This document shows positions 8,611 to 48,420 of a stretch of DNA of 64,000 bases, in pieces. The first letter of the stretch is position 1. Every line of letters begins with the position of its first letter. Origin of the DNA: Octopus vulgaris (Eukaryota). The notes beneath the pieces were generated by a model. It searched no databases and was not told where the DNA came from. It was given only the letters and a program-made list of their open reading frames with translations. A program made the translations under genes and the position numbers. Location: assembly GCA_951406725.2 (NCBI GenBank), contig OX597820.1, positions 15,996,001 to 16,060,000 on the forward strand, read 5' to 3'.

Positions 8611-9217
8611 CGCCGTACTATTACTGCTACCCGTTCGGTCGTCGGCTTTTCCCTAGAAGTGAAATCGATTAATTAACATAAATTCGATCATGTGATATTG
8701 TTAACATCCGTTTGAGAGACAGACGATATCTTTAAGTGCAATTAGAGAAAATATAAACAAATAAACAAACAAAATAGTCGTAAAATACTAAATAACAACA
8801 ACACACTCACAAACAAACAAACAAACTCTGAACAATTGCAAATTTCGATCTACTTCAGTAGCATTCATTCAGCCATTGCCTTTTGTGTTGCTTGCGTGTA
8901 TTAAGTAAGCCATTTTCCATGGTTCCGGGTTCAGTCCCGCCGCGTGGTGGCAGCTTGGGTATGTGTCTTCAACTATAGCCTCAGACCAACCACTGCCTTG
9001 TGGTCAAATTTGGTGGACGGGAACTGAATGAAGCTTGTTGTGGGCACACAGGAGAACCGCTCGGAGTCATCGGATCTAAGGGGCCAATTGCGGATCTATA
9101 CATGCTGTTGTTGTGTGTGTGTGATGGCCCCAATACATTGCTGTGTCGGGAACGGGGGCTATAATGATATTAAAACGCCCCCTGAGTACCGTAACTCTGA
9201 ACGTGTTTCAGCCTTAT

Positions 9218-9613
9218 TTCTTATTTCTTTGTTGCCCTCAAGGGACAAACAAGGGACAAACGGATTAAGTCGATTACATCGACCCCAGTGCGTAACTGGT
9301 ACTTATTTAATCGACCCCGAAAGAATGAAAGGCAAAGTCGACCTCGGCGGAATTTGAACTCAGAACGTAACAGCAGACGAAATACCTATTTCTTTACTAC
9401 CCACATGAGGCTAAACACAGAGGGGATGAACAAGGACAGACAAACGGATTAAGTCGATTATATCGACCCCAGTGCGTAACTGGTACTTAATTTATCGACT
9501 TCGAAAGGATGAAAGGCAAAGTCGACCTCGGCGAAATTTGAACTCTGAACATAACAGCAGACGAAATACCGCTAATGATTTCGCCCGGCGTGCTAACGTT
9601 TCTGCCAGCTTGC
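9218..9613 (-). mobile_element. SINE family C head-to-tail dimer flanked by one 16-bp TSD
   Basis: TSD CGTGTTTCAGCCTTAT at 9202-9217 and 9614-9629; one head, two bodies; junction at 9379-9392. Confidence 0.92.
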
Positions 9614-9990
9614 CGTGTTTCAGCCTTATGAGACCTCATTAACAGAACTTAGTTTAACAGCAATTTCAAGATCTTAAAGCACAAAATAAAAGAAAATAAA
9701 TATAAGCCAGCAGAATATGTGATGACTGTGCAGAGACAGCAGCTCACTCTGCTTCTAATCAGCAAGTCTTTACCACAGCTGAATACGTTATGAACATATC
9801 AAAAACAAGGTTTTTCTTTTTGATTATTTTATTACTCTACGAAATCTGTCTGGTGCCTCAGTTACTTTAACTCTCTTAATACCAACCCGCCGAACACTGC
9901 CCTATTTCTATGATACAAACTTCCTGTTTTAATGCAGTCGAAATCAAAACCTTCCATCAAAATTTTTTATTTGTTTAATAACGACGAAAT

Positions 9991-10470
9991 TACTCTCTTT
10001 TCTCTCTTTTTACTCTTTTACTTGTTTCAGTCATTTGACTGCGGCCATGCTGGAGCACCGCCTTTAGTCGAGCAAATCGACCCCGGGACTTATTCTTTTT
10101 TGTAAACCCAGTACTTATTCTATCGGTCTCTTTTGCCGAACCGATAAGTGACGGGGACATAAACACACCAGCATCGGTTGTCAAGCGATGTTTCGGGGAC
10201 AAACACAGACATGCAAACATACACACACACACACACACACACACATATATATATATATATATATATATATATATATATATATATATATATATGCATATAC
10301 ATATATACGACGGGCTTCTTTCAGTTTCCGTCTACCAAATCCACTCACAAGGCTTTGGTCGGCCCGAGGCTATAGTAGAAAACACTTGCCCAAGGTGCCA
10401 CGCAGTGGGACTGAACCCGGAACCATGTGGTTGGTAAACAAGCTACTTACCACACAGCCACTCCTGCGCC
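9991..10470 (-). mobile_element. Full-length SINE family A, possibly nested in a decayed piggyBac-type MITE (TTAA 9867 ... GGG TTAA 10529)
   Basis: Near-consensus A copy; the host MITE call rests only on TTAA-bounded ends. Confidence 0.92.
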
Positions 10471-10597
10471 TATTACTACAGTAATTTCTTCAATATTTTC
10501 AAAATTAACCGATGCAGAGAAGGGGTTAAAAGCTGACCTCAGCGGAATTTGGGCTCTTTAGTCGGAACGCAAAATATTTTTTTTCTAAATCTGTTTA

Positions 10598-44615: not shown

Positions 44616-46459
44616 AGAAAGTGTAAGAAGGCACGTGTGTGTGTGTGTGTGCGCGCATGTGTGAGTGAGTGTGTGTATGCGTGTGTGCGTATGTATGTAT
44701 GTGTATGTTTGTGTGTGCGTGTATGTGTGTGTATGTATGTGTGCGTGCGTGTGTATGTGTGTTCGTATGTGTGCGTAAGAATGTGAGTATGTGTCTGTGC
44801 GTGTGTGTACATGTGTGTGTATATATGTGTGCGTGTGCGCACGTGTGTACGTGTGCGTGCGCGTGCGTATGTATGTGTGTGTATGTGTGTGCGTATGTGT
44901 GCATGTGTGTGCGTGTATGTGTGTGCGTGTATGTGTGTGCGTGTATGTGTGTGTATGTATGCGTGTGCGTATGTATGTGTGTGCGTATGTGTGCATGTGT
45001 GTGCGTGCATGTGTGTGCGTGTATGTGTGTGCGTGTATGTGTGTGTATGTATGCGCGCGTGCGTGTGTATGTGTGTATGTGCGATCGTATGTATGTGTCT
45101 CTGTGCTTGTGTGTGCACGTGTGTATGTGTGCATGCGTGTGTTTAAACATGTAGGAAGCATGCCTGTCTAATCTGTGCAAGAGACATTGTGGAAAATACA
45201 CGGCAGAGATGCTGGTTGTTCCGCCAGACATCGGCAGACGGCAGTATACTAAACGGAGTCAACCGTTTGACCTCCTCACTTGAGCACAGGTATCCAAGCA
45301 ACAGGTGATACACCCTGCTGGCTTCTAGGAGTGCCAGGAATAGCGTATTATGGCGTTCATGCGTCTCCTTCAACGCGATACAGATCAAATGAAAATAAGC
45401 GATCGAATCTCGTCCGCGGATTTCATTCGTCGAAAAACTTACCCTCCTACGCTTTTTTTTTCGCGCTCATCATACATACATTCATACATATATATATATA
45501 CATACACACACATACATACATGCATACAATATGCATACACACATGCTAAAATTCATACATAAATACACATACATACATACATACATACACACATACATAC
45601 ATACATACACACATACATATATATATATACATACATGCACACATACATGCATACAACATACATACATATACATACATACATATATGTATATATTTATGTA
45701 TAAACACACACATACATGCATACATTCATTGATATATATATATATATATACATACATTTAAACATAAATACCATACTTGTGCATATAAACCCACACATAA
45801 ATCCACTTCGCACGCACACACATACACACACAAACACAGACACACACGCGCACCACTTCATATACACATCATATATTAACACTCTCACATGATAAGCAAA
45901 CGCGCACAGATATCGTATACATACATCATATATACACGCTTACATACATCAACATACATCATATATACTCACACCCTCATATCATATACAAACACATACA
46001 CACCTCAGTACATAAACACATTTTATACAAGCACACACATACACAGAACATATACAAACACACGCACACCCGTCATATTGAAACACATACATACATACAG
46101 CATATATAAGCATATACACACACACACACACACCATATACATCACACATGCATCATATACATACACACAACATTTATAAACACACACTCGACACTCACAC
46201 ATTATATAGGAACGTACGAACACATCTCCAGACAGCAGACGGCGCTAAATAACTAGGGGTGTTATCCCGTTCACACCCTGACAGGCAGACATGCTCACAC
46301 ACACATACACACACACACACACACACACACACACACACACACACACACACACACACATACACACATAGATGTTATAAACAGCCAGCAGACGGAGGAGACG
46401 TCGATTTTAAAACCGTTCGACGCCTCTCATTTGCATCTTTATCACCGTTGCGGCGGTGG

Positions 46460-47041
46460 CCACTAACACCACCACCACCATCACCACTAACACCACCACC
46501 ACTAACACTAATACCACCAACACCACCACCACCACCACTAACACCACCACCACCACCACCATCACCACCACAACCACCACCACCATCACCACTAACACCA
46601 CCACCACTAACACTAATACCACCAACACCACCACCACCAACACCACCACCACCATCACCACTAACACCACCACCACTAACACTAATACCACCACCACCAC
46701 CAACACCACCACCACCATCACCACTAACACCACCACCATCACCACTAACACCACCACCATCACCACTAACACCACCACCACTAACACTAATACCACCACC
46801 ACCACCACCACCACCACCACCATCACCACTAACACCACCACCATCACCACTAACACCACCACCACTAACACTAATACCACCAACACCACCACCACCATCA
46901 CCACCACCACCACCACCACCACCACCACCACCACCACTAACACCACCACCACTAACACTAATACCACCACCACCAACACCACCACCACCATCACCACTAA
47001 CACCACCACCACTAACACTAATACCTCCACCAACACCACCA
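46460..47041. repeat. (ACC)n-derived tract with recurring ACTAACACTAATA and ATC variants
   Basis: Visible higher-order periodicity. Confidence 0.93.
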
Positions 47042-47229
47042 TACTCTGAGTGAGAGGGGAAATGGGAAAACTAACCCAGCTGAACCGGACTACAACCATA
47101 GAGAAGGTCGTAGGATGAGTGGGTGTTACACTATGAATCCTAAGACCCAGTCATCGGCAATGCTGCAGCCAGTAATAATGCTTCAAATGTTGGTGCAAGA
47201 TCAGCAAATTTAGAAGGACAGCACTAGTG

Positions 47230-48420
47230 CTCGAATGGTACTTTATTTATCGACCCCGAAAGGATGAAACGCAAAGTCGATTTCGGTGGAATTCGAAATC
47301 CGAACGTAGCGACGACGTGCGAAACACCGCTAAGCATTTTGTCCGATGCGCAAACCATTTTGCCTTTGCCTGCTCGGCGCTTTAATAATAATAATAATAA
47401 TAATAATAATAATAATAATAATAATAATAATAATAATAATAATAATAATAATAATAATAATAATAATAATAATAATAATAATCCTTTCTACTGTAGGCAC
47501 AAGGCCTGAAATTTTGGGGGAGGGGGTTAGTCTATTAGCTCGACCCTAGTACGCAACTGGTACTTAATTTATCGACCCCGAAAGGATGAAAAGTAAAATC
47601 GGTCACGGCGGAATTTGAACTCAGAACGTAGCGGCAATCGAAATACCTATTCCTTTACAACTCACGAGGGGCCAGGACAAAGAAGGACAGACAAACGGAT
47701 CAAGCCGATTATATCGACCCCAGTGCGTAACTGGTACTTAATTTATCGACCCCGAAAGGATGAAAGGCAAAGTCGACCTCGGCGGAATTTGAACTCAGAA
47801 CATAACGGCAGACGAAATACCGCTAAGCATTTCGCCCGGCGTGTTAACGTTTCTGCCAACTCGCCAATAATAATAATAATAATCCTTTCTACTACATGCA
47901 CAAGGTCTGAAAATTGGTGGGGAGGGGCTAGTCGATGGCATCCATCCCAGTGCTTGATTGGTACATTTTTTTATTGACTCCCGAAAAGATGAAAAGCAAA
48001 GTTGACGTCGGTGGAATTTGAACTCAGAGCATTAAGACGAGGAAAATACCGGCGTGCTTAACGATTCTGCCAGCTCGCCGCCTTTGTTTTAGCAATCATA
48101 AATAATGGTTTCAAATCTTGGCACGCGGCCAGCACTGTTAGAGGAAGGTGACAAGTGGTGCTAAACTGGTAGCTATTTATCGACCCCCGAAAGATGCAAG
48201 GCCAGGTCGACCTCGACGGAATTTGAACTCAGAATTTAATAATGGAGTGGAACTATAGAATGGTTTTTTTTTTCTGAACAAGGCCAGCAATTTTCAGTGG
48301 TGGTTGTGATGGTGGTGGTGGTGGTGAGGAGGATTGGTTCTTCTACTGCTACTTTATTTTGTCGACCCCGAAAGAATAAAAGGCAATGTTGGCCTCGGCG
48401 AGGTTCGAAGTCGGCGTGTA
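47230..48420 (-). mobile_element. Co-oriented pile of at least five SINE family C copies, including a hybrid dimer at 47482-47865, with (AAT)n between several copies
   Basis: Repeated ATCGACCCCGAAAGGATGAAA...GGAATTTGAACTCAGAA motifs; junction at ~47640-47653. Confidence 0.85.

Follow-up and report, generated by a model that had tools for sequence, protein, structure and literature searches.

Why copies of a short interspersed element (SINE) should be joined to one another always at the same site is the question raised by a 64,000-nt stretch of Octopus vulgaris DNA (assembly GCA_951406725.2, contig OX597820.1, forward strand, positions 15,996,001 to 16,060,000). The whole stretch is called the window here, and positions are counted from its first letter. 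It is animal DNA rich in microsatellites, and in it units of what appears to be a tRNA-type SINE are arranged in tandem behind, at most, a single head.

Arrays of a SINE joined in one register

Six arrays, designated A, C, D, E, F and H, with eight junctions were observed in the window (Table 1). All eight are joined in the same register of a 184-nt unit (183 nt in F, 174 in H and 191 in E), and such agreement is not due to chance. The unit starts with GGTATTTCGTCTG, contains a B-box-like element GTTCAAAT 27 nt in, and continues through the body to a tail ending in AAAGAAATA. At 8/8 junctions this tail abuts the unit start GGTATTTCG or a near variant. The tail reads AAAGAAACA at 15201 and AAAGGAATA at 47648; the start has one G fewer in F and reads GTTATTTCG in D and GGTATGCCG at 15202. 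Both junctions of E have one additional tail 7-mer.

The head, ~45-50 nt long, contains an A-box-like element TGGCAGAAACG, which is spaced 64 nt from the B-box-like element. ARAGORN predicted 0 genes and Rfam gave no match to the head. Five of the six arrays have a single head, and C is 5'-truncated and headless. The first unit has the complete head and every later unit shows the identical head truncation in 5/5 headed arrays and at 8/8 junctions; neither a doubled head nor an internal target-site duplication (TSD) is present in any of the five. The arrays are short (two or three units) and interspersed. The unit coordinates thus bear out the first-pass annotation of the window in its count of arrays and junctions, its single register, its limit of one head per array and its headless array at 14955. 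Its assignment of all arrays to one family did not hold, as the last units of D and H have the tail of a sister family, called type 2 here.

The (AAGAAAT)n simple-repeat tail and the variable TSD are as in a tRNA-derived SINE. BLAST with the 9218 dimer as query found eight young loci in 64 kb (the six arrays, a monomer at 41996-42192 and a truncated unit at 10762) plus older relatives; arrays are therefore 6/8 of the young loci. These loci, together with large contig counts in public runs (sister family included), exceed the 100 copies expected at least of a SINE. Matches of the translated repeat in a protein database numbered 1, 3 and 15, enough for the genus and too sparse for phasing of the junction. 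Three proteins of O. bimaculoides contain translations of the repeat at 81-87% identity, which places the family in Octopus. Judged from these features, the family appears to be a tRNA-type SINE of Octopus. The top protein match, P0005, is an unrelated shrimp repeat protein. The O. bimaculoides proteins P0002-P0004 and P0006 contain antisense translations of the SINE group and are probably mis-predicted exons.

Pattern scans for further copies gave 0 matches in viral contigs and 0 in two metagenome scans, and the single match in a prokaryote genome covers 23 bases only and is taken as chance. The exact-word search for short body motifs (Nin/Deu, Meta and CORE domains) gave 0 matches in the searchable supplements of PMC4824008 (2 files) and PMC11481361 (8 files). 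In the whole-window Rfam scan, the 150 of 294 matches listed are microsatellite-like and under the gathering score.

The arrays appear to move as units. Dimer A is enclosed by one exact 16-bp TSD, as first annotated, and E by an imperfect 15-bp duplication at 31660 and 32301. The insertion targets of D, F and H match the tail of their own last unit. The targets of C, F and H are microsatellites, in which the TSDs of F and H are unresolvable. No TSD was found around C and D, or between units in any array. No LINE-like open reading frame (ORF) is evident by eye among the 94 ORFs of at least 110 aa in the window, without a Pfam scan (LINE, long interspersed element). The flanks of E (31660-31690 and 32301-32330) show 7 + 12 matching bases around 8 mostly mismatched ones, readable as a 27-bp TSD with a replaced middle or as a short TSD with extra bases. 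The monomer at 41996-42192 ends in AAAGAAATAGTAT, which resembles the junction start; it may derive from copying of an inner unit of a multimer.

Table 1. Coordinates of arrays, units and related SINE copies in the window (GTAGT- and GCAA-type tails and the sister family, type 2, are treated in the text)
Feature	Position	Strand	Start of downstream unit	Remarks
TSD of array A, 3' side of element	9202..9217	.		16 bp exact; partner copy 9614-9629
Array A overall	9218-9613	-	9386
A2, last unit	9218..9386	-		GCAA-type tail, two deletions, doubled tail 7-mer
A1, 184-nt unit	9387..9570	-		B box, shared body, GTAGT-type tail
A head	9571..9613	-		A-box-like element, 5' strand of hairpin
TSD of array A, 5' side of element	9614..9629	.
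Single 5'-truncated unit	10762..10880	-		GCAA-type tail; adjoins (TA)n tract
Array C, headless	14955..15385	+	15018, 15202	Truncated unit 14955-15017, C1 15018-15201, C2 15202-15385; (TA)n at end
Array D	25545..25940	-	25709	Head 25894-25940, D1 25710-25893 with family tail, D2 25545-25709 type-2 sister unit
Array E	31682..32300	-	32060, 31869	Head 32252-32300, E1 32061-32251, E2 31870-32060, E3 31682-31869
Array F	39435..39850	-	39619	Head 39803-39850, F1 39619-39802, F2 39435-39618 with GCAA-type tail; within (TAGA)n tract
Single unit with partial head (monomer)	41996..42192	-		3' end ...AAAGAAATAGTAT
Array H	47482..47865	-	47647	Head 47822-47865, H1 47648-47821 with damaged family tail, H2 47482-47647 type-2 unit then (ATT)n; sits in (ATT)n tail of type-2 monomer
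Headed type-2 sister-family monomer	47866..48080	-		Others near 44028, 53527, 55961, 26804, 47364

The junction in public runs

The stretch 25100-32600 is present, in whole or in part, in 20 of the 24 public runs listed. A reference consisting of the head and F1 (39619-39852) was compared with four runs: contigs of X16 (organism E), contigs of X10 and X17 (both organism A, RNA by guess), and raw DNA of X22. Matching records, sister family included, numbered 129,855 in X16, 27,551 in X10 and 12,803 contigs in X17; 15 of 12.9 million reads match in X22, and one of them shows the junction. Contig counts are not copy counts, the tables for X16 are incomplete, and the joints counted below are among the 15 of 211 listed.

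The junction of the window (39802 to 39619) was found in 2, 5 and 1 contigs of X16, X10 and X17, respectively. In 2, 8 and 2 contigs, a joint from 39786 to 39619 is interrupted by unknown letters and agrees with this junction. At 39802, 120 contigs of X10 diverge from the reference into a tail whose consensus is of the GTAGT type (agreement 0.73; among the 20 of 928 loose ends listed). A second joint, 39835 to 39619, is present in 2, 2 and 3 contigs. It lies 33 nt further into the head, and there the tail repeat meets the head at a common AGAAA, as ordinary microhomology-guided insertion or switching would produce. Among the 12 of 123 rows listed for joints with letters between, five are in the main register and three in the second, and the translation of a diverged protein, P0010, reads like the second joint. 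The junction is thus real outside this assembly and common to two organism labels, yet it is not the sole joint.

Independent local DNA duplications or assembly errors at each array are an extremely unlikely source of the junctions. E1 and E2 do have the look of a locally duplicated or mis-assembled unit. Six loci with one register are not what independent events would give, units in the other arrays differ by 7-26%, and the joint was also found in contigs from three public runs and in a single raw read. For A, C, D, F and H, such an origin is for the most part refuted.

The depth ratio of head to family tail is about 1:1 in X16, 1:4 in X10 and 1:2.5 in X17; it gives no copy number and is of the same order as the six heads to 15 young bodies of the window. 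It is not counted here as a sign of headless RNA. Two RNA runs with an insect metagenome label, X19 and X20, share 0.05 of the words of 25100-32600, probably simple repeats, and were not taken as evidence.

Mixed units and the origin of the junction

Units of one array are in general no closer to each other than to units of other arrays, with one near-identical pair as the exception. Over the shared body, mean divergence is 0.078 within arrays and 0.091 between them (permutation p 0.035). This apparent similarity is due to E2: when that unit is left out, the means become 0.092 within and 0.094 between arrays (p 0.41), and those for the full units of A, C, E and F are 0.088 and 0.087 (p 0.55). 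The first-pass annotation had proposed this comparison, and the answer is negative once E2 is removed. E1 and E2 have six variants in common and differ at two adjacent positions, and E3 has just one of the variants of E1; array E therefore has the appearance of a dimer in which a unit was duplicated later.

The first-pass annotation had also suggested that a ~185-190-nt circle, formed by loop cleavage and ligation, was copied by rolling-circle reverse transcription. A cycle of this kind, with self-ligation to a 184-191-nt circle as in retrozymes, would explain the fixed register, and the unit length is in the retrozyme range of 150-300 bp (PMC7761336; here and below, statements from papers refer to the parts of their text available). 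E1 and E2 are the only pair which fits it. The other 7/8 within-array pairs differ by 6.6-26%, A and F among those with variant differences, and D and H end in a unit of another family. A circle would be headless, yet 5/6 arrays are headed. The hammerhead core CUGANGA is absent from both strands of seven loci, Rfam gave no ribozyme for arrays C and E in matches to E 10, and an HDV-like fold was rejected by eye and by Rfam scans. The z-scores of the circular minimum free energy for five units are +0.08, +0.51, +1.58, +1.53 and -0.40, with 50-59% of bases paired, no better than shuffles. Copying of one circle is contradicted by these results and is very unlikely.

The tails of the units differ by their position in the array. 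The GTAGT-type tail is found in 7/7 independent upstream units (H1 with one substitution) and in 3/8 last units (Fisher p 0.026; 0.070 without type-2 units). In this test, which was picked after inspection of the data, E1 and E2 were counted once. The GCAA-type tail is found in the last units of A and F and also, at 10762, in the truncated copy. D and H end in units with ~95-115 shared bases followed by the type-2 tail. This tail also terminates headed monomers in the window, and headed type-2 monomers with the same head variant are present in O. bimaculoides (P0002). All four combinations are seen, over 27-32 nt, both for variant columns 77/80 with 109 and for 125 with 152, a sign that the family as a whole undergoes recombination or recurrent change.

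Some further variation was observed. The start of C2 (15202-15222) is type-2-like, with columns 13 and 15 as in D2, yet C2 has the family tail and is the mirror of H2. In the type-2 head at 55975-56012, two stem positions that are G in the family heads are occupied by A (A-U in place of G-U pairs). Among the common variants of the body, two are A/G when read on the sense strand; speculatively, such changes might recur through A-to-I editing of the SINE RNA ahead of retroposition.

By a narrow balance of probability, the junction was inherited from multimeric RNA polymerase III sources, which were retroposed whole and then reshuffled by recombination, and was not remade at each insertion. One founding event, or a small number of them, would have created the junction at the hairpin tip of the head. 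Transcription would start at the sole A-box/B-box head and read through units mostly lacking a T4 terminator. Runs of T4 number 0 in arrays A, C, D and F and in the monomer at 41996-42192, and two each in E and H; for the seven loci, the distance downstream to the first T4 is 28-411 nt. To judge from the TSD and the target matches, a partner LINE would reverse-transcribe the multimer from its last or an inner tail, giving arrays, monomers and 5'-truncated copies. Crossing-over or template switching by reverse transcriptase (RT) in the ~95-115 nt common to the sister subfamilies would swap last units and mix variants; the tail variant, 10 nt from the junction, would stay linked to it. Local unequal exchange may later add units, as for E1 and E2. 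The uniform GTAGT tail upstream fits an inherited tail-to-GGTATTTC junction. The first-pass annotation had inferred an origin at the RNA or RT level and had named a multimeric master copy among the possible routes; movement of arrays as units stood, and among the routes a multimeric source fits best.

Several observations weigh against this explanation. No source locus was identified, and recombination was not directly observed. Upstream units show at least four haplotypes at columns 125/152, which are 59 and 32 nt from the junction, with frequencies close to those in run X10 (about 32% and 64%). With at least four haplotypes less than 60 nt away, a single founder needs frequent recombination near the junction. 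In D and H both the upstream and the last variants differ, so that they have no common chimeric master. The inner junctions of E have the doubled tail 7-mer that is seen in last tails. The coincidence of tail pairing with the junction, described below, must be assigned to the founding event.

The head hairpin described by the first-pass annotation was reproduced; its stem has 13 bp and its loop four bases. The restart of the unit falls on the base with which the 3' strand begins, on the 3' side of the apical loop. The earlier placement of the junction in an anticodon-like loop is not supported. By counting, it lies 37 nt after A-box T8, at about tRNA position 45, the start of the extended variable region, and the positions of the anticodon loop would be those of the stem's 5' strand; no tRNA is recognised here by ARAGORN or Rfam. 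A TSEN-type cut was rejected by this counted position. In 11 heads, 85.5% of the cells are paired, compared with 28-64% for slid partners. No pair shows two-sided covariation in these heads, and shuffles equal the pairing in 486/500 cases. The hairpin is present, also in type 2, but selection for it is unsupported.

In 3/3 heads, the best pairing of the common GTAGT tail falls at the junction window or no more than 2 nt away from it. The duplex of this tail with the unit start is -11.1 kcal/mol, followed by -9.4 for GCAA and -7.2 for type 2. Shuffled tails equalled the pairing in 73, 180 and 400 of 1000 cases, respectively, so that p is ~0.07 at best. Tail pairing with the unit start is thus suggestive, not significant. 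The structure-guided joining proposed in the first-pass annotation, taken as joining of different RNAs, keeps some probability.

A repeated remaking of the junction at the RNA or RT level, between different SINE RNAs, is rather unlikely. The head hairpin would be cut at its loop, or stall the RT there, and the GTAGT-tailed 3' end would be paired with GUAUUUCGUCUGCC and joined by RtcB-like ligation or by a jump of the LINE RT, with circles as a by-product. Heteromeric arrays and diverse upstream haplotypes follow directly from it. The restart at the 3' side of the apical loop agrees with it, and the energy ranking GTAGT > GCAA > type 2 matches the tail found upstream. There are precedents in RtcB, which joins U6 to L1 RNA ahead of retrotransposition (PMC6789731), and in the R2 RT, which jumps across separate templates (PMC8857657). 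The R2 jump requires untemplated addition (PMC8857657), whereas untemplated bases are present at 0/8 junctions. In addition to the shuffled-tail and covariation results, the process requires an unknown nuclease and an exact 3' end, though the first T4 lies downstream of the loci. In the runs compared, no site was found at which many molecules start or stop, but the RNA-like runs consist of contigs, which can show neither ends nor circles.

One ribozyme-free version of cut-and-rejoin is a doubtful proposition. A host nuclease would open both the loop of the head hairpin and the look-alike hairpin at the junction, and a ligase or the LINE RT would string 184-nt monomers from different loci and sister families behind one head. 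If this were true, the SINE would recombine at the RNA level and may pass through circles. There would be monomers with a fixed 5' end and a tail pairing back onto it, and RNAs starting with GGUAUUUC with a 5'-OH and ending in AAGAAAUA with a cyclic phosphate.

It is quite improbable that a young SINE inserted by target-primed reverse transcription into a resident head at the hairpin tip, with its 5' end joined by homology and the last unit being the older resident. Such insertion would explain why the upstream tail is of one type and the last unit of any type, including type 2. The headed type-2 monomers of O. bimaculoides (P0002), with the same head variant, and the tail-into-head joints at the second site are in line with it. 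However, the main junction has no microhomology between tail and target, unlike the outer 3' ends. The absence of a doubled head or internal TSD in the five headed arrays also argues against insertion, and no doubled-head joint is among the public joints listed.

The first-pass annotation had stated that a multimeric source with position-specific variants and no circular or processed RNA, or else scattered junction positions, would speak against its RNA-level reading. In part this was observed: rank-biased variants and a second junction site exist. The preferred explanation remains inheritance from multimeric sources.

Known SINE multimers and other repeats in the window

The closest layout is that of the TSD1-(SINE)n-TSD1 multimers of tRNA-SINEs with a highly conserved domain (HCD) in the clam Scapharca broughtonii (Martelossi et al. 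2024, PMC11481361). There, too, in a mollusc host, the first unit has the full tRNA head, later units show one identical head truncation, one TSD encloses the array, and some arrays include another family (PMC11481361). The clam arrays differ in their truncated inner tails, their 4-15 units and their share of ~3% among SINEs with high scores (PMC11481361), whereas the octopus inner tails reach the terminal AAGAAATA, the arrays have 2-3 units, and 6/8 young loci are arrayed.

The SINE-derived satellites (sSats) of squamates (Vassetzky et al. 2023, PMC10702118) are built of tandem units in which the 3' portion of the tRNA head, box B included, is followed by the body, and they have a longer terminal unit. 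The snake unit begins at position 42, and the 179-nt whiptail unit runs through the LINE-derived region (PMC10702118). They comprise hundreds of homogenised units with a subtelomere preference, and are ascribed to unequal recombination; the layout is attributed to DNA-level or source-level processes (PMC10702118). The octopus arrays are short, interspersed and heteromeric, with marks of retroposition, and not long or homogenised.

For complex SINEs and head-to-tail multimers, with Alu and jerboa Dip as examples, retroposition of a multimeric template or head-to-tail stacking is described (PMC3531059, PMC8466645). Their units are complete or nearly so (PMC3531059, PMC8466645), whereas later octopus units lack the A-box half and vary in number. 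Nearly half of the Dip copies are multimeric, and the origin of B2/B1 dimers is left open (PMC8466645). Metazoan non-LTR (long terminal repeat) retrozymes share tandem units of 150-300 bp and a proposed multi-unit cDNA; they have tandem type I hammerheads and highly paired circular RNAs, neither of which was found in the octopus arrays, and no tRNA head is described for them in the available text (PMC7761336). An RNA-level cycle, if true for octopus, would be a protein-assisted counterpart of retrozymes.

Ohshima and Okada reportedly described the tRNA-derived Octopus SINEs OK, OR1 and OR2 in 1994. These and the tRNA-Deu/tRNA-Core octopus SINE classes (PMC8967140) share the genus, a tRNA-type head and a very high copy number with the present family, a likeness by description. 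No description of tandem bodies in octopus SINEs was found in the literature searched, and none is given in the available parts of PMC13282606, PMC8967140, PMC4758252, PMC5804259, PMC4824008, PMC3531059 and PMC3510499; alignments in Repbase, Dfam or SINEBase may already hold a multimer. The layout is known; in the octopus window it comes with intact inner tails, mixed subfamilies and an apparently high share of arrays.

In O. vulgaris, SINEs account for ~11.6% of the genome (PMC13282606). Should a major young family move mostly as one-headed multimers that swap units with sister families, copy counts, consensus models and age profiles of octopus SINEs are mis-specified. The family would also offer thousands of natural replicates on a question named as open in PMC8466645 and PMC10702118, which concerns both the origin of SINE multimers, be it multimeric templates, SINE-into-SINE insertion or unequal exchange, and the way in which satellites start from SINEs.

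Other repeats were observed in the window. The region 47236-48400 contains about six copies of the SINE group in the same orientation (three type-2-like pieces, array H and another headed copy), several of them linked via (ATT)n tails, as though tails attract new insertions. Another repeat of very high abundance, which contains a (TA)n/(TG)n tract and is likely a further octopus SINE, is present at 10000-10500, 26300-26700, 37250-37600, 53720-54800 and elsewhere. Its copies give similar translations, and the 10762 fragment sits inside one of them. The 266-bp direct repeat at 13272-13771 (1.9 copies, 97% identical) is unrelated to the arrayed SINE family. At 35357-35670 there is a 122-bp tandem repeat of 2.6 copies, which are 82% identical.

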